From: Myxococcales bacterium
GTDB lineage: Bacteria > UBA10199 > 2-02-FULL-44-16 > JAAZCA01
NCBI GenBank assembly: GCA_012513515.1
Contig: JAAZCA010000031.1
Span: 19,905-83,904 of the forward strand
Direction: 5' to 3'
DNA: 64,000 bases
Shown here: piece by piece, positions 1 through 13,010 of the stretch
Layout of the letters: every line of letters starts with the position of its first letter
How positions within the stretch are numbered: position 1 is the first letter of the stretch
Notes under the pieces: model-generated
The model's input: only the letters and a program-made list of their open reading frames with translations
The model's database searches: none
Told to the model about the DNA's origin: nothing
Translations under genes and position numbers: made by a program

Positions 1-2156
1 ACTATGATATGTTCGGAAAGAAGCGAGCCATGAGTATATTTTCCCGCACCATCATGTGATGTGGAAAGCAGTGAAACTCCGGAAGCAGCGCTTGTGACGA
101 TATCACCAGCCCTCTTCGATCTAAAAAGACCGAGAAGCTGCACTATCGCATCCGGATAGGCGCTCTCCCAGCTGCGTTCAAGTCCCGAAGAGGCATCGAG
201 TACCTGACCCTGCCCTACATATCCGAATGGATCCTCTCTGGTCAGATAGGTTATCCTGCCATCGGCATCCTCGATGATCCTGGCTTTTCCGCGCGAGCTC
301 TGGACGATTATTCCGCCTTCGTTGCTGCGGCCAGCCACGATATCGATTTCAGCTTTCTCGATTAGAGACCCTACGATTCCCTTTCTCTCGATATCCTCGA
401 AAAAGTTTCTTTCATCCCAAGAACCGCCCTTCTTGAAGTACAGATTCGCCATCGAAGTCCCTGAGGGTAGAGAGATCACGTCGCTCTCTTGCCAGTCCTT
501 CAAATTCCCAGATGAACCGGCGACCTTTCCCCTCTTGGAAAGAAAATTCTTGAGATCAAATCTCTTTTTTCTTTCGACCAGAGAACAGTCCGGGACGAAA
601 AAAAGCGCGGTCCTGTCATAAAGTCCGCGGTCTTTGAGTATGCCTATTGCCCCGCCTATGTACTCATCCAGTCTGCGGTAAGAATATTTCACCGCCTCTT
701 CGCTAGCCTCCTCCGGATTCAAAAATGCCGCTGGCGGAAATGAATAAAATACAAAATCGGTCTCCTTCCTGGCGGCCGAGGAAAACCAGCCCAGAGCCGC
801 ATTAGCCGCAGCATCCAGGTCCGCCGCGCTTCTTGCTTTCTGGAACCTGCTGAGCGTGCTGAAAAAAGACATGTCGCGCACCAGCCCGCATCCGCGATTG
901 AGCGGGCCGAAGATATTGGCGGCCTGCCGCGAATATTCGAAGATCGTACGAACGGAGTTTGAAAGATCGTGATCCATCGCGTAGGTTCCCCAGCCATCGT
1001 AGTCGCGAAACCTATTCATAGAAAAAACTTTTGAGCTGGAAATAGACCTGTCGAACCATCTGATTCCGGGTATATCGCATGTTCCAGGAAAACACCCGGT
1101 TATGTAAGGGGCAATCGCCGTTCCCGCCGTAGATGGAAAGGATCCGCACAGCTCGTATTTTCCGCCGCGCGAAGAGATGTGTCCTGAAAGATTCGGCAGC
1201 TCTCCGGAAGTTAACATCGAATCAAAAATTTTTCTGTCAACTCCACCTATGTTGAAGATGACCACATGGGCGAATCGCGCTTTGCTCCTGTCGTATCCGT
1301 ATCTCGCCTTCTCCCACAGCTCCTCGCGGCCGCTGTGCGTGGTGAGTTTGGAGAGGATCTGCACCATCGTTTCCTTGCCGCGCTTGTCCTGCGTGTCCAG
1401 CGCGTTCATCACGAATATCGTCCTGTAGGCGGAGGTCCAGATCGTCATCGCCGCTATGAATATCGTGGAGCCTATCACAAGAACCGGCGCAGGGTTGTGC
1501 CACCAATGCTCCAGAATTACATCGGCGACCGGCTGCATGATCGCAGCCACACCCATGTAAACTATCCTCTCCGGACGCTGCATGACCCCAACCGCGCAGT
1601 CGATTCCAAGCGCCTCGCCCCTCGCTCTGGTGTAGCTCACCATCGTAGAGGCGATCATCGCTATTATGGCGATCGGCATTATCCATCCATCCCTGAAATA
1701 ATATGCGATCCCGAGGAAACAGGCCGCTTCCCCAACTCTGTCGGTGACAGAATCAAAGAATGCGCCGGAGCGTGTGCATTTGCCGGTTATTCTCGCGACA
1801 CGGCCGTCGAAGAAATCGAAGCTCGCCCCGAATACCATCGCCCATCCGGCATAGCCAAAGGAACCTATGGCGAAGAGAAGTCCTGAAATCGCAGCGATAA
1901 AAAGCCCCATGATGGTTATCATGTTCGGGCTTATGCGCAGTTTGATCAGGAAGCGCACTATCGGATCAGTGGTCCAGAACCACCATTCTCTGGTCGTCGA
2001 ATCGAGAAAGCTGGAGCCCTGATTTTTGGCGCCGGCGAACTCCCTCTTTTTCTTCTTTGAAAACCAGATGTGGTACATGAAAAATGAGCTGACAAGGACC
2101 GCGTTTATAACAAAGAGCGGCCCGAGCGTTATCCAAATTTTGCTTATAGCAGGCAT
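1..2156 (-). CDS. CDP-alcohol phosphatidyltransferase (PgsA/PIP-synthase-like) fused to a C-terminal alkaline-phosphatase/nucleotide-pyrophosphatase-superfamily domain; runs off the window start
   Basis: Missing from the ORF track (no stop in window). Manual translation from ATG 2156: MPAISKIWITLGPLF...DFFDGRVARITGKCTRSGAFFDSVTDR (DGxxAR-x8-G-x3-D-x3-D motif), then HVVIFNIGG...FPSTAG...ITGCFPGTCDIPGIRWFDR...GDIVTSAASG...THGSLL. Confidence 0.85.
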   Translation of the reverse strand, partial: MPAISKIWITLGPLFVINAVLVSSFFMYHIWFSKKKKREFAGAKNQGSSFLDSTTREWWFWTTDPIVRFLIKLRISPNMITIMGLFIAAISGLLFAIGSFGYAGWAMVFGASFDFFDGRVARITGKCTRSGAFFDSVTDRVGEAACFLGIAYYFRDGWIMPIAIIAMIASTMVSYTRARGEALGIDCAVGVMQRPERIVYMGVAAIMQPVADVILEHWWHNPAPVLVIGSTIFIAAMTIWTSAYRTIFVMNALDTQDKRGKETMVQILSKLTTHSGREELWEKARYGYDRSKARFAHVVIFNIGGVDRKIFDSMLTSGELPNLSGHISSRGGKYELCGSFPSTAGTAIAPYITGCFPGTCDIPGIRWFDRSISSSKVFSMNRFRDYDGWGTYAMDHDLSNSVRTIFEYSRQAANIFGPLNRGCGLVRDMSFFSTLSRFQKARSAADLDAAANAALGWFSSAARKETDFVFYSFPPAAFLNPEEASEEAVKYSYRRLDEYIGGAIGILKDRGLYDRTALFFVPDCSLVERKKRFDLKNFLSKRGKVAGSSGNLKDWQESDVISLPSGTSMANLYFKKGGSWDERNFFEDIERKGIVGSLIEKAEIDIVAGRSNEGGIIVQSSRGKARIIEDADGRITYLTREDPFGYVGQGQVLDASSGLERSWESAYPDAIVQLLGLFRSKRAGDIVTSAASGVSLLSTSHDGAGKYTHGSLLSEHII

Positions 2157-2468: not shown

Positions 2469-2501
2469 AAAAAAAGGCCCCCGTTTTCACGGGGGCCTTT
2501 T
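2469..2501 (-). terminator. Rho-independent terminator (bidirectional type) after the porin gene
   Basis: AAAAAAAGGCCCCCG-TTTTCA-CGGGGGCCTTTT stem-loop with A/T tracts. Confidence 0.85.
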
Positions 2502-2534: not shown

Positions 2535-3689
2535 TTAGAAGTTATAGACGAAGCCCATGACTGCGCCGAACACGTACTGCGTCTCACCTGCACCTGATGT
2601 CGGCTTCACGATGTCAAAGCGGCCTTCGAGCTTGAACTTCGCACCGTCGGCAACCGCGTATCCGCCGCCAAGAGCGATTTCATGCACCTGTTGCTTTATG
2701 CCAGTACCGATGTAGTCGATAGGGCCGTTGGTACCCTGACGCTGCATCGCCATCGAATAACGGAGCGTTCCATCCCACACATCGGAGAACACATAGTGCA
2801 GGTTGAGGAGACCGGCGAAGGTATTTAGGTTCTCGTCCACGCCAGGAACGAGGGCGTTATCACGACGATAGATTCCCTCGAGACCGAGAGCGAAAGACTC
2901 TGTAAGCCACCAGTTGATATCTGCATCCACGCCAAAGCTGTAGTGCCTGTTGCTGCTGCCATCGGAAGGCCCGAAGAACGGGGAGATCCCGAATGTGCTC
3001 TCTGTTCCCTCTTCGCCCCAGTTGAAACCGATTCTGGCGCCGAGAGCCGGCATGTTAGCGGTCCTACCAAAGTTATCGTCGTTGATGATCCTATTGGCAG
3101 CCCAGAAGTGCAGGTCAACCAAATCGGAGAAAGCATAGTAGATCTTTGCACCGGTGAGACCGACCGGACGGATCTGCGAGCGGATGAGGATGGTCTGGGA
3201 GATCAGATCGTTGTCAGCTACATCTACGGACTCGAAGCCGATCGGGGCGTTGAAACGACCGACCAAAAATTCTACGCCGTTACCAGCCGGGATGTTCGCG
3301 GTGGCATAGGCCTGTTCGAGTACGAAAGCCTGGGTGCCAGCAGCAAAGGAATTCACCCTGCCGAAGTCGAGGTCAGCGCGAAGACGTACGTTCTCGCCGA
3401 AGGACTTCATGATGTCGAGTTCCACGCCATCGAGGAAGAAACCGAAATAGTGCTTCTTGCTCGAGTCAGCCCCCATGTACTTGCCCATCGGGCCAGGACC
3501 GGTCAGCACTCCATCTACACCGGTAGCGATTTCCGTGTTGGCCTTGTCATTGTGGTACTGATAACCCATGCCGGTTACGATGCTGCCGGACATTTCAAAA
3601 CCGCCGCCTACGTACTTTTCCTGCGCGTTGACGTTGGCCGCAAAAAAGGCCAGGCCGAGCGCTAAAGCTATAACTAGAATCTTTTTCAT
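2535..3689 (-). CDS. Outer-membrane beta-barrel porin (BBP2/OmpL-like family)
   Basis: Sec signal (MKKILVIALALGLAFFAANVNA), GRFNAPIGFES motif, amphipathic strands, C-terminal YNF. Confidence 0.75.
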   Translation of the reverse strand: MKKILVIALALGLAFFAANVNAQEKYVGGGFEMSGSIVTGMGYQYHNDKANTEIATGVDGVLTGPGPMGKYMGADSSKKHYFGFFLDGVELDIMKSFGENVRLRADLDFGRVNSFAAGTQAFVLEQAYATANIPAGNGVEFLVGRFNAPIGFESVDVADNDLISQTILIRSQIRPVGLTGAKIYYAFSDLVDLHFWAANRIINDDNFGRTANMPALGARIGFNWGEEGTESTFGISPFFGPSDGSSNRHYSFGVDADINWWLTESFALGLEGIYRRDNALVPGVDENLNTFAGLLNLHYVFSDVWDGTLRYSMAMQRQGTNGPIDYIGTGIKQQVHEIALGGGYAVADGAKFKLEGRFDIVKPTSGAGETQYVFGAVMGFVYNF

Positions 3690-9931: not shown

Positions 9932-12589
9932 TTAACGAGGTTTTTTAGGATTCGCGCCCATGATCCTATTCGCCCAAGATTGTGTGCGTTCTATAAAGCG
10001 CCTTTCTACTCCATCAGCAGATACGATTTGAAGAGAACCCACACCTTTGATCTTCATCTTGGATCTTATGATCTTCTCAACGTTATCCCTGCTCATGCCC
10101 CCAGTAAGTGGGATCCTCACCTTGAACTTCCCTGTCGGGGTATCTTCTAAATCACACCAGTCTATCTTCACGCGATCATTTAACAGAGCTTCGAGCACGC
10201 TTTGCATAACTCCCTTATCTGCAAATTCTGTTCTCTCGACCACAACATCCATAAATGTGACTTTGCCCACGTAGGGAGGGGGGGTGCCCCTGTAGGAATC
10301 CTCGAGCGTGGAGAAAAATTCGTCCACCGCCTCCAACTTGCTAGGCTCGTCGATAGGCATCTCGAATTCAAGCAAGGCCTGCTGTGATTCTCCAACCCTT
10401 TCGAATTTTACGGATGAAAAAGAAAGCCCGTAGTCAAACGCCGACAAAAGTATGTTTTTGAGAAGCGATGAGTCGTGACGAAGGAGAAGTCTGGCCGAAA
10501 CTTTTTCGTTACGATCGTAACGCGTAAAAAGTATCGAATTCGCCATTATCCTGCTCTTGACTTCGTTGACAAAATCCTGCCGCCAAGCTCCAGAAGTTTT
10601 AGAAATTTCAGAAGCTTTACGAAAAGCCCCAAGCGTTATAAAGAACTCTTCCTCAGTTTTGAATCCCAATCTGCGATAGAGACGCTCAAACGAAAAAAGG
10701 AAGGTCGGGCTGGCAGTCCCAAACTTCCTTCCCCCCTGTGAATTTATGAGCTCCTCCTTCACCTCGGATGATATCCTAGCCAGCTCAGCCTTGCCATGTC
10801 CGGAAAGGTACTCCTTATTTATCTTTCTGGGATCAAGCGAGAAATTCTTCTCTGCGACGGTTGCAGCATATAACATCATCGCCCTGGCGTAGGGGGTTTT
10901 CACAATATGGATCCTTGTGGGAAATATAGAATGGCCCCTCGTTTGGAAATCGAACCTCTGACCGGATTCGATACGGGACTCAAGTTTTTTGGACGAACCT
11001 TCCAAAAAACCCACATCGGCATAGAGAGCGGAAAATGCGTCCCTCGCAAAGGCGGCGTCAAGCAGGGATGGTTTTCTATCTTGGCTGCCGGTAACGATCT
11101 TCAAAATCTTTCCGTTGGAGTCATCGATGACGAAAAAAGTTCCGGACGAATGAATCCCATCTTTTTTCGCTTTAAACAGGGTTCTGGGAGGGTCTATGTC
11201 CGACGAGGTCGTTAGCTGCACCGTTTCCCCTGTTTTATAAGCGCCATGAGCTGCGGAACCGAACTCGGCATTCATGTGCATGGCCGACGTTCTTACCTGT
11301 ACCTCCAGGAGATATCCGCTGGAATCCTTATAATAGGCGTGTAGGGACTTATACCCGTTTGCCTTTTGTTTAACATAGATGTAGTCGTCGTAATGCTCAG
11401 GTAGATACTCCCAGCCGCGGGCGGTGAAATAAGCTTTGACCTCCTCCATCGCCTCGTAGCACATTTCGTCGCGATCGTCATTTATTATGATCCTAATTCC
11501 GTTGGTATCGCGGTTATTCCCCTTCTTATCACGTCTGACACGGGCACTGACAGTTGTCTTCATGCGATGCTCGATATAGTGACCGATGCCTTTAGCATCC
11601 AAAGCATCCCTGAGCTCCCTTGAAATTTCTTCCAGCCTGGCATTGGACGATCTCCTATCCATGCCGACCTGCTTGCGGAGATGTTCTTCCATTTCCTCGT
11701 AAGAGAATGGCTCCAGATGCCGGAATGCGACGTCCTCGAGGGTTCCTCCATCCTGGCTAAAACCGAAATATTTCAGTATCTGCGATGTGACGAAACGAGA
11801 TCGCTGCATCTTCTCCTCGCTCTCGCGGTCGAGGCCGGAAGAAGGGCGCTGAGATAAAAGCCCTGCGTCGACTGTGTCCTGAGCCGCGAGAAGCATCAAC
11901 TCCTCGTGGCTGTTCGAAATCGCGAATAGAAGGCTCATGAGACGGCCGTACTGATTCTTGTCAGACCAGTCGCAGGTAAAGGATTTTGTCCTCTCGAGCT
12001 GGCTCAGTAATTTTTTAACCTCCGATTTACCATTCCCGGAGATAGAATAATCCTTCTTTCCGGAGATCAGCGCGGCGGCGATCGCGGGAGTGGAGGAGTC
12101 CCAGCTGGCGAGTAAAAACGCACATCGCAAATTTCTTATTTGGCTATCGGTGGAAAGAGTGGAAAGGTTATCAAGCGCACTTCTGACAAGTTTGAGGTCC
12201 TTATGCCCCAGCTTTTCGAGCCGTTCGAGGAGCTTCTTTTTCGGCTCAGAGGTATCATCGGGATCATGGTCAGGAAAACCATAAAGCCCCGCAAAAATCT
12301 CTGAGGACTTCAATGCAGCGCTGGCAGCGGCATCGCCGGAGGAAAAGATCGCAGCCCCGGATCCCGCATCGCCTGCAAAGGCCATCGCGTGAGATGGAGC
12401 AAAGATTGATCCGGCGGAAATGCCATGCGGCGCACCATGAGCGAACCTTTTGCAAAAATTTTTAACCTGGCAAATGGTGAAAACTGGAGCGCTTGAGCTC
12501 CCAGCCTGCCCGGCGAAAGCCACAGGAGCGAAAGAGGCAGGCGTTGCGGCAAAAGGAAAATTAAAAGGCTTAAGCACAGGAAAACGCAT
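9932..12589 (-). CDS. Long RelA/SpoT homologue with intact (p)ppGpp synthetase motifs, degenerate HD hydrolase and N-terminal low-complexity extension
   Basis: HRMKTTVS, RDTNGIRII, DDYI..KANGYKSLH, EVQVRT, AEFGSAAHGAYK. Start placed at ATG 12589 (RBS AGGGG) because the track start at 12808 lies inside a repeat cassette. Confidence 0.85.
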   Translation of the reverse strand: MRFPVLKPFNFPFAATPASFAPVAFAGQAGSSSAPVFTICQVKNFCKRFAHGAPHGISAGSIFAPSHAMAFAGDAGSGAAIFSSGDAAASAALKSSEIFAGLYGFPDHDPDDTSEPKKKLLERLEKLGHKDLKLVRSALDNLSTLSTDSQIRNLRCAFLLASWDSSTPAIAAALISGKKDYSISGNGKSEVKKLLSQLERTKSFTCDWSDKNQYGRLMSLLFAISNSHEELMLLAAQDTVDAGLLSQRPSSGLDRESEEKMQRSRFVTSQILKYFGFSQDGGTLEDVAFRHLEPFSYEEMEEHLRKQVGMDRRSSNARLEEISRELRDALDAKGIGHYIEHRMKTTVSARVRRDKKGNNRDTNGIRIIINDDRDEMCYEAMEEVKAYFTARGWEYLPEHYDDYIYVKQKANGYKSLHAYYKDSSGYLLEVQVRTSAMHMNAEFGSAAHGAYKTGETVQLTTSSDIDPPRTLFKAKKDGIHSSGTFFVIDDSNGKILKIVTGSQDRKPSLLDAAFARDAFSALYADVGFLEGSSKKLESRIESGQRFDFQTRGHSIFPTRIHIVKTPYARAMMLYAATVAEKNFSLDPRKINKEYLSGHGKAELARISSEVKEELINSQGGRKFGTASPTFLFSFERLYRRLGFKTEEEFFITLGAFRKASEISKTSGAWRQDFVNEVKSRIMANSILFTRYDRNEKVSARLLLRHDSSLLKNILLSAFDYGLSFSSVKFERVGESQQALLEFEMPIDEPSKLEAVDEFFSTLEDSYRGTPPPYVGKVTFMDVVVERTEFADKGVMQSVLEALLNDRVKIDWCDLEDTPTGKFKVRIPLTGGMSRDNVEKIIRSKMKIKGVGSLQIVSADGVERRFIERTQSWANRIMGANPKKPR

Positions 12590-12599
12590 AGTCCCCTGC

Positions 12600-12626
12600 T
12601 TCTCGGCTTCCTGCAAAAAAAGTTGC
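12600..12626 (-). promoter_or_regulatory. Putative alternative-sigma promoter GCAAC-N14-GCCGAGAA
   Basis: Minus strand GCAA ctttttttgcaggaa GCCGAGAA, ending 10 nt before ATG 12589. Confidence 0.5.
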
Positions 12627-12775
12627 GTACTTCTTTCGGGGAGGCAAACGATTCGCGCCACTATAAAAAAGATACATATCAGCGACTTAACCGGTTCGGC
12701 CAGTCCATGCAAGCGAAAATACTTAAGTAACCTCCGAAAAATCAGCAAATTCAGAGCGCCTCTAAAAACCATGCG

Positions 12776-13010
12776 CTTGTCATCCCCGAGTGACGGAAAG
12801 GTCGTCATCCCCGAATGACGAGAAGGTTGTCATCCCCGAGTGGTATAATCGGGGATCCCGCAACAGCCGTGAAGTGGGAAAAACAGAAGCTAGAAGCTAG
12901 AAAAACCTCGCCTGTAGAAATCTCGCTTCTCGCTTCCAGATTCCAGCTTCTTGATGTTTTGGTCGATGGTCAATCGTCCATGGTCGAAGTTATTGTTGCC
13001 TCTAGCTTTT
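12776..13010. repeat. Intergenic mosaic repeat cassette with three tandem GTCATCCCCGA units (25-nt period)
   Basis: GTCATCCCCGA x3, hairpin ending TCGGGGATCC, AGAAGCT heptamers; 12885-12961 is an inverted copy of about 22008-22077. Confidence 0.9.

Follow-up and report, generated by a model that had tools for sequence, protein, structure and literature searches.

A phosphatidylinositol-phosphate synthase-type enzyme fused to a catalytically degenerate alkaline-phosphatase-superfamily domain in the uncultured phylum UBA10199

At one end of a 64,000-nucleotide stretch of a genome from the uncultured phylum UBA10199 (contig JAAZCA010000031.1, positions 19,905 to 83,904; G000:C30:19905-83904 in the parent contig, hereafter the window), an intact membrane synthase and a phosphatase-fold domain that has lost its active site are encoded as one protein. 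The reading that we prefer, at a probability of about 0.7, is that of a phosphatidylinositol-phosphate (PIP) synthase (PIPS)-type enzyme whose alkaline-phosphatase-superfamily (AP) domain is dead, is selectively maintained and would serve a non-catalytic role. Publicly, such fusion proteins are annotated as ‘alkaline phosphatase family’ or ‘CDP-alcohol phosphatidyltransferase family’, and literature searches on the fusion architecture, and on UBA10199 together with inositol, found no paper. What is new here is that the fused domain is demonstrably, by alignment with its active relatives, a lineage-specific pseudoenzyme; that sequences document the whole course, from a live fusion through a dead domain to its loss; and that the members of the intact clade become candidates for a head-group hydrolase in the inositol-lipid metabolism of bacteria.

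The gene appears in the open reading frame (ORF) listing as a minus-strand ORF of 718 aa at window 3-2156, open at the window start, and would for that reason be absent from a track that lists complete ORFs only; in full, the gene encodes 772 aa (L001:1338-3656, minus strand) and extends 162 nt beyond window position 1. Pfam places CDP-OH_P_transf (PF01066) at residues 76-205 (58.2 bits against a cut-off of 22) and Phosphodiest (PF01663) at residues 298-560 (39.9 bits against 23), and the same scan found no PgpA domain (PF04608) in the fusion protein. An AlphaFold2 (AF2) model built from a 150-sequence alignment (pLDDT 93.8, pTM 0.82) orders the helices as 6-32, a juxtamembrane helix at 53-72, six long helices within 77-257 and two short linker helices, followed by an alpha/beta domain from ~295 to the C-terminal end. 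In window coordinates the layout is as follows (TM, transmembrane).

1-2156, minus strand: fusion gene, codons 1-718 of 772 (ORF listing, codons checked)
Before the window start, G000:C30:19742-19904 = L001:1338-1500, minus strand: end of the fusion gene, last 54 codons and stop
2061-2141, minus strand: extra N-terminal TM helix, residues 6-32, then a KKKKRE loop (AF2 secondary structure, orthologue N-termini)
1386-2000, minus strand: PIP-synthase-like CDP-alcohol phosphatidyltransferase domain, juxtamembrane helix and six TM helices, residues 53-257 (Pfam, NCBIfam, PDB profile, Foldseek)
1275-1385, minus strand: predicted cytoplasmic linker, residues 258-294, two short helices, with an invariant ARYGYDR-type motif (family alignment, AF2)
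3-1274, minus strand: NPP-type AP domain, residues 295-718 of 295-772, catalytically degenerate (Pfam, Foldseek, profile alignment)

Because the KKKKRE loop follows the first helix, and because the catalytic aspartates of PIP synthases lie where TM2 and TM3 end on the cytoplasmic side (PMC4634129), the predicted topology is that of an inner-membrane protein with the N-terminus outside, seven TM helices and a cytoplasmic C-terminal domain, so modelled that the AP domain would share a membrane face with the synthase active site. The extra N-terminal helix is also present in stand-alone PIPS-like proteins of the phylum. An assembly artefact or mis-frame was ruled out, since identical architecture and substitutions recur in many independent metagenome-assembled genomes (MAGs).

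The AP domain matches NPP enzymes and phosphonoacetate hydrolase, with the Xanthomonas NPP 7n1s found by Foldseek at TMt 0.70 and probability 1.00. A single-sequence search of the PDB with this domain gave no significant match and a family profile was needed: against Xac NPP (2gsn), the profile of stand-alone relatives sets DG on D54, the second Thr of FPSTTGP on T90, D-x3-H on D210/H214 and SDHG on D257/H258, and the mutant chains 7mw8 (T90A) and 7n1s (H214A) point to the same alignment columns. Seven positions were scored, comprising the Thr nucleophile and six metal ligands (Xac NPP D54, T90, D210, H214, D257, H258 and H363), at which the window protein carries G304, A344, A477, P481, D523, C524 and H709, retaining two of the seven.

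1245-1247, minus strand: G304, replacing the metal-ligand Asp (Xac NPP D54; alignment, codons)
1125-1127, minus strand: A344, replacing the Thr nucleophile (Xac NPP T90; alignment, codons)
714-728, minus strand: A477...P481, replacing D-x3-H (Xac NPP D210/H214; alignment, codons)
585-590, minus strand: D523 kept (D257), C524 replacing His (H258; alignment, codons)
30-32, minus strand: H709, last His ligand, kept (Xac NPP H363 by family alignment; alignment, codons)

No Asp or His lies within residues 472-482 to stand in for the missing pair. The Thr nucleophile is gone and so are four of the six metal ligands, which leaves one metal site with one of three ligands and the other with an Asp and a Cys; on these residues canonical two-metal, covalent-intermediate AP/NPP catalysis by the domain is excluded, and it is, as judged by alignment, a structural rather than a catalytic member of the superfamily. 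The preliminary description of this stretch had correctly held that the architecture was missed by the ORF track and overlooked that the gene continues past the window edge, as its retrieval in full revealed. The intact CDP-alcohol phosphotransferase motif that it reported is borne out at codon level, as are the motifs from which it read a dead site (I303-G304-G305, P341-S342-T343-A344, SFPPAAF at 472-478 and P522-D523-C524-S525); the profile alignment to 2gsn puts these in register with the NPP ligands and nucleophile, and the alignment to Pfam Phosphodiest that it proposed clears the cut-off. Its dead site stands as regards the nucleophile and four ligands, and is to be corrected for D523 and H709, which leave two positions of seven rather than none.

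Viewed across the family, the loss is neither ancestral nor universal. The fusions comprise more than 100 sequence clusters at 40-61% identity, from MAGs labelled Deltaproteobacteria, Myxococcales, Pseudomonadota or UBA10199, and they range from intact to degenerate sites.

7/7 ligands kept: 16 of 105 fusion clusters
6/7 kept (H214 lost): 13 of 105
4-5/7 kept: 15 of 105
0-3/7 kept: 61 of 105

In an AP-domain tree rooted on stand-alone relatives the fusions form a single clade (support 100) whose basal clades are intact (7/7), and the window protein falls in a crown clade of 48 members, none of which keeps more than three of the seven. Changes counted on a tree with the ligand columns masked amount to at least four from intact to degenerate, and to 5-20 per ligand column; the ligand lost first differs between clades, and decay was therefore repeated and independent. 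As reconstructed on these trees, the history is shown to be one in which the fusion arose once, was intact at first and then decayed independently in several lineages, with an intact stand-alone paralogue surviving in nearly all genomes. All 10 sampled fusions of the window's taxonomic family (11 with the window's own) keep 0-3/7, such that the losses, whose conservation in orthologues the preliminary description had wished to see checked, are common to every fusion of that family and absent from the 16 intact clusters. Orthologues that retain the ligands, which it had named as counter-evidence, are the distant basal ones only, and the claim is refined in that respect; its pseudoenzyme on a lipid-synthesis enzyme is upheld by five substituted positions of seven, family-wide loss and continuing purifying selection.

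The same history has a further step. Among 93 species genomes of the phylum that were searched, 91 have a match to the fusion protein; the fusion itself is found in ~21, from six families, mostly with the stand-alone AP gene kept too, and in the non-fusion genomes a PIPS-like protein bearing the extra N-terminal helix is found, mostly together with a separate ~475-aa stand-alone AP-type match. A synthase-only gene occupies the syntenic locus in G028 and G029 (from the window's family, f1) and in G015 and G016 (f2), and in the synthase-domain tree all four nest among dead fusions. Because these genes lie at the same locus and within dead-fusion clades, the dead domain is, by the tree, secondarily deleted in them.

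Where it persists, comparisons of columns and rates show the dead domain to be under purifying selection that is relaxed at the catalytic columns. AP domains of dead fusions are on average 51% identical in pairwise comparison, those of live fusions 54%. For the two dead pairs that are most closely related, nonsynonymous divergence (dN) is 0.075 and 0.154 in the AP domain against 0.085 and 0.126 in the synthase domain, and lies far below synonymous divergence (dS), with dN/dS at 0.01-0.14, rough values because dS is saturated (>1). Columns that are conserved in both stand-alone and live copies and relaxed in dead ones number nine, five of them active-site positions (D304, T344, D477, S522 and H524) and the others F470, Y493, P549 and G693; at 37 columns conservation reaches 90% or more in each of the three groups (stand-alone, live fused and dead fused), and a further 19, clustered at residues 385-431, are conserved in fusions only. 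The domain thereby fits an operational definition of a pseudoenzyme, with active homologues, two of seven ligands, and dN far below a saturated dS.

On the preferred reading, the intact synthase would make PIP at the cytoplasmic leaflet, and the tethered dead domain would hydrolyse nothing and be kept for a non-catalytic job beside the synthase active site. That job would most likely be the binding of the phospho-inositol head group or product, as a pseudophosphatase-like holder or regulator, or else the scaffolding or stabilising of the synthase; dephosphorylation of PIP would then fall to another enzyme, either the genome's PgpA homologue or its intact stand-alone AP paralogue. Ligand binding may well have been retained, because many charged residues other than the ligands are conserved across live and dead copies (R384, D397, R682, D685, H716, R733 and D736), and we infer, as the preliminary description did from the window's letters, a ligand-binding or regulatory module. 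Its role would not be essential everywhere, as the secondary deletions indicate.

Several observations weigh against this reading. The dead domain is dispensable at least in G028/G029 and G015/G016, where it has been deleted; the column comparison found no residue conserved specifically in dead copies, and so no sign of gained function; no PIPS or MIPS gene lies within ~8 kb of the stand-alone AP genes in 67 loci, which leaves the fusion as the one functional link between AP and PIPS; and the synthase domain falls short of the NCBIfam equivalog cut-offs (PIPSynBT1523 138.9/350, archin_ph_syn 131.1/180, PIPSynth 118.8/170), such that its acceptor could differ. It is unlikely, all the same, that the domain is a decaying relic which lost its function with its active site, is heading for deletion and is kept since its removal destabilises the synthase. 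The nested synthase-only genes, the many independent substitutions in the ligand columns and the want of dead-specific residues are all as such a relic would have them, but all 61 clusters with 0-3/7 ligands are full length (>700 aa) with no truncated copies among them, and the near-equal identity of dead and live sets, an AP-domain dN that keeps pace with that of the synthase far below dS, and the 37 shared and 19 fusion-only conserved columns argue against it.

The identity of the synthase is carried by the following residues.

1740-1817, minus strand: catalytic motif D114-x2-D117-G118-x2-A121-R122-x8-G131-x3-D135-x3-D139, intact (codons checked)
1566-1568, minus strand: R197, equivalent of MtPIPS R155, ligand of the inositol-phosphate phosphate, in an RPER motif (profile alignment, PMC4634129)
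1422-1424, minus strand: R245, equivalent of MtPIPS R195, second inositol-phosphate ligand (profile alignment, PMC4634129)

Within the catalytic motif D114, D117, G118, A121, G131, D135 and D139 are invariant in both family alignments, and R122 is invariant in one and at least 90% conserved in the second. R197 and R245 are invariant in the family, by profile alignment to 6h53; their mycobacterial counterparts bind the phosphate of inositol phosphate, and the pair is conserved throughout the PIPS but lacking in eukaryotic PI synthases (Clarke et al., PMC4634129). Mycobacterial and Renibacterium PIPS are the best PDB matches (E 3e-20 for the single sequence), the family profile matches 6h53 at E 7.8e-38, and Foldseek finds 6h59 (M. 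tuberculosis PgsA1) at TMt 0.79 and a root-mean-square deviation of 3.3. The three best NCBIfam matches are all of inositol-phosphate type, namely BT1523-type PIPS, archaetidylinositol-phosphate synthase and PIPSynth. Because PIPS are the top matches, both arginines are present, the genome encodes MIPS, and the housekeeping PgsA and PssA are separate genes (as is a DIPPS-like transferase), the N-domain is most likely a PIP synthase, and the fusion protein probably condenses CDP-diacylglycerol with inositol-1-phosphate from the genome's MIPS. We consider it improbable that the domain instead passes phosphatidyl, or another CDP-activated group, to a different phospho-alcohol, with an ancestral substrate of the C-domain unrelated to inositol lipids: to the unreached cut-offs this alternative can add that the fusion gene is not near MIPS and that a separate MIPS-linked cluster has a CDP-alcohol transferase of its own, yet it must contend with sequence, profile and fold searches whose top matches are all PIPS, with the invariance of both PIPS-specific arginines, and with MIPS and a PIPS-type protein that are both near-universal in the phylum.

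The closest relatives of the fused domain are a stand-alone cytoplasmic AP-family enzyme of the same phylum, consistent with an origin by duplication. In the window's genome this intact paralogue (G000:C1, L013:3836-5269, minus strand) is 477 aa long, 32% identical and carries all five motifs; a separate search found its orthologue in 12 of 13 other fusion genomes, and most of the 93 phylum genomes have a match of the stand-alone type. Its gene closes a conserved set, all on one strand, that runs histidine kinase, TolC-like OEP, MlaC and AP, an order seen in ~30 loci down to 40% identity (loci L028-L060). This MlaC operon suggests a tie between the AP family and envelope-lipid handling or phospholipid trafficking, without defining the substrate. 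Searches of the ESM Atlas returned generic ‘phosphodiesterase family’ clusters only. The gene for a third, more distant AP-family paralogue (690 aa) comes immediately downstream of one for a 673-aa radical SAM protein (Radical_SAM_N2 and Radical_SAM; G000:C15, L014:1991-6139, plus strand). By analogy, the intact clade, stand-alone enzymes and basal 7/7 fusions together, might be new cytoplasmic lipid-head-group phosphatases or phosphodiesterases acting on PIP or a related inositol lipid, and the dead copies bacterial pseudophosphatases that hold PIP or hand it to the active paralogue in myotubularin-like fashion; this we advance as speculation, with the odds well against it. It is very unlikely that the fused domain is still an enzyme with a rebuilt site (e.g. 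one metal bound at D523/C524/H709, and a nucleophilic T343 or T346), for although D523 and H709 are kept, Cys can ligate Zn and T343 is widely conserved in the FPST motif, in close relatives position 524 varies among C/H/Y/F/G/A and 709 among H/S/C/Q/N, the two change 18-20 times on the tree, and T343 is just as conserved in active copies, where the following residue is the nucleophile.

Neighbourhoods, compared by tblastn on fetched loci, place the fusion in an order that is syntenic across the phylum: OmpL-like porin, synthase, GbsR/CudC-like regulator, and convergent BamA-like and TamB-like genes. Between the porin and the fusion gene lies one further feature.

2472-2501, minus strand: terminator-like hairpin, 13-bp stem and T run, after the upstream porin gene (strong)

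Because this hairpin separates the two genes, the fusion gene probably starts its own transcript. The porin, an OmpL-like beta-barrel (BBP2), is encoded upstream on the same strand (window 2535-3689, minus strand) and keeps its synteny with the synthase gene throughout the phylum. The GbsR/CudC-like winged-helix regulator lies downstream of the fusion gene at a distance of 33 nt, without an intervening terminator (L001:690-1304, minus strand, before the window start), and a homologue lies ~2.3 kb from stand-alone PIPS-like genes in distant lineages (L051, L057, L058 and L061). Genes for a TamB-like protein (1075 aa) and a BamA/TamA-like protein (908 aa) converge on the fusion locus (L002:5107-11057, plus strand, before the window start), an arrangement conserved down to 26-36% identity in other genomes. 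Further into the window, 9932-12808 (minus strand) encodes a 958-aa protein whose only Pfam match is a RelA_SpoT synthetase region (428-528), unusually long for a RelA/SpoT homologue of a small genome.

The remaining inositol-lipid genes lie elsewhere in the genome. MIPS, present in 82 of 93 phylum genomes, is encoded on another contig (G000:C16), in a cluster (L012:3775-11260) with a DIPPS-like CDP-alcohol transferase (445 aa), a HAD hydrolase, an NTP transferase, an LPG-synthase-TM protein and a class II aldolase. The window genome's MIPS cluster resembles an ‘alternative inositol lipid cluster’, itself unconfirmed, that Heaver et al. (2022, PMC9246714) put forward for B. vulgatus and Prevotella; this small genome may thus have two routes to inositol lipids or solutes. 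A PgpA homologue is found at G000:C22, and in Bacteroides a PgpA-type enzyme dephosphorylates PIP (PMC9246714). PgpA occurs in 21 of 22 sampled phylum genomes, whatever the state of the fused domain. The only negative, G061 (90% complete), is also the sole species-representative genome with a 7/7 fusion, a coincidence that is suggestive at most in a single genome and may be due to chance.

Bacterial inositol-lipid synthesis is poorly mapped, and a PIP phosphatase, of PgpA type, has been identified in Bacteroides only (PMC9246714). Read as a Rosetta stone, the fusion of a PIPS-type synthase to an NPP-type hydrolase names a candidate partner enzyme family across an uncultured phylum. The series that records the birth of this pseudoenzyme is unusually complete, running from duplication and fusion through repeated loss of the active site under selection to deletion, and its matched live and dead orthologues offer material for testing why a dead alkaline-phosphatase-fold domain persists.

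Among known systems, the fusion protein shares with bacterial PIPS (M. tuberculosis PgsA1 6H53/6H59, Renibacterium 5D92 and M. kansasii 6WM5) the six-TM fold, the intact motif, both arginines and RPER, and differs from them in its extra N-terminal TM helix, its 480-aa cytoplasmic C-terminal AP-superfamily domain and an identity of only ~25-28%, below the NCBIfam equivalog cut-offs. That C-terminal domain has the same alpha/beta core fold as Xanthomonas NPP (2GSN/7N1S) and the phosphonoacetate hydrolase PhnA (1EI6), and its active relatives carry the same set of DG, Thr, D-x3-H, DHG and His in register with NPP; the window copy, in contrast, keeps the equivalents of D257 and H363 only, is predicted to be cytoplasmic and tethered to a membrane synthase, and belongs to a family with its own conserved insert (residues ~355-440). 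In eukaryotes, dead myotubularin-related proteins partner active phosphoinositide phosphatases, and the likeness lies in a dead paralogue kept under selection beside an active one in a phosphoinositide context, although the folds are unrelated (PTP versus AP superfamily). With the Bacteroides pathway (BT_1523 PIPS, BT_1525 PgpA-type PIP phosphatase and BT_1526 MIPS; PMC9246714) the window's genome shares the predicted first step and the presence of MIPS and PgpA, whereas its synthase is unclustered with either and the AP-superfamily domain is unrelated to PgpA. A precedent is the bifunctional IPCT/DIPPS enzyme (4MND), in which a CDP-alcohol transferase that acts in inositol-phosphate metabolism is joined to a soluble, cytoplasmic enzyme domain from that pathway; there the partner is an N-terminal, active cytidylyltransferase, whereas here it is a C-terminal AP-superfamily domain, dead in the window's lineage.

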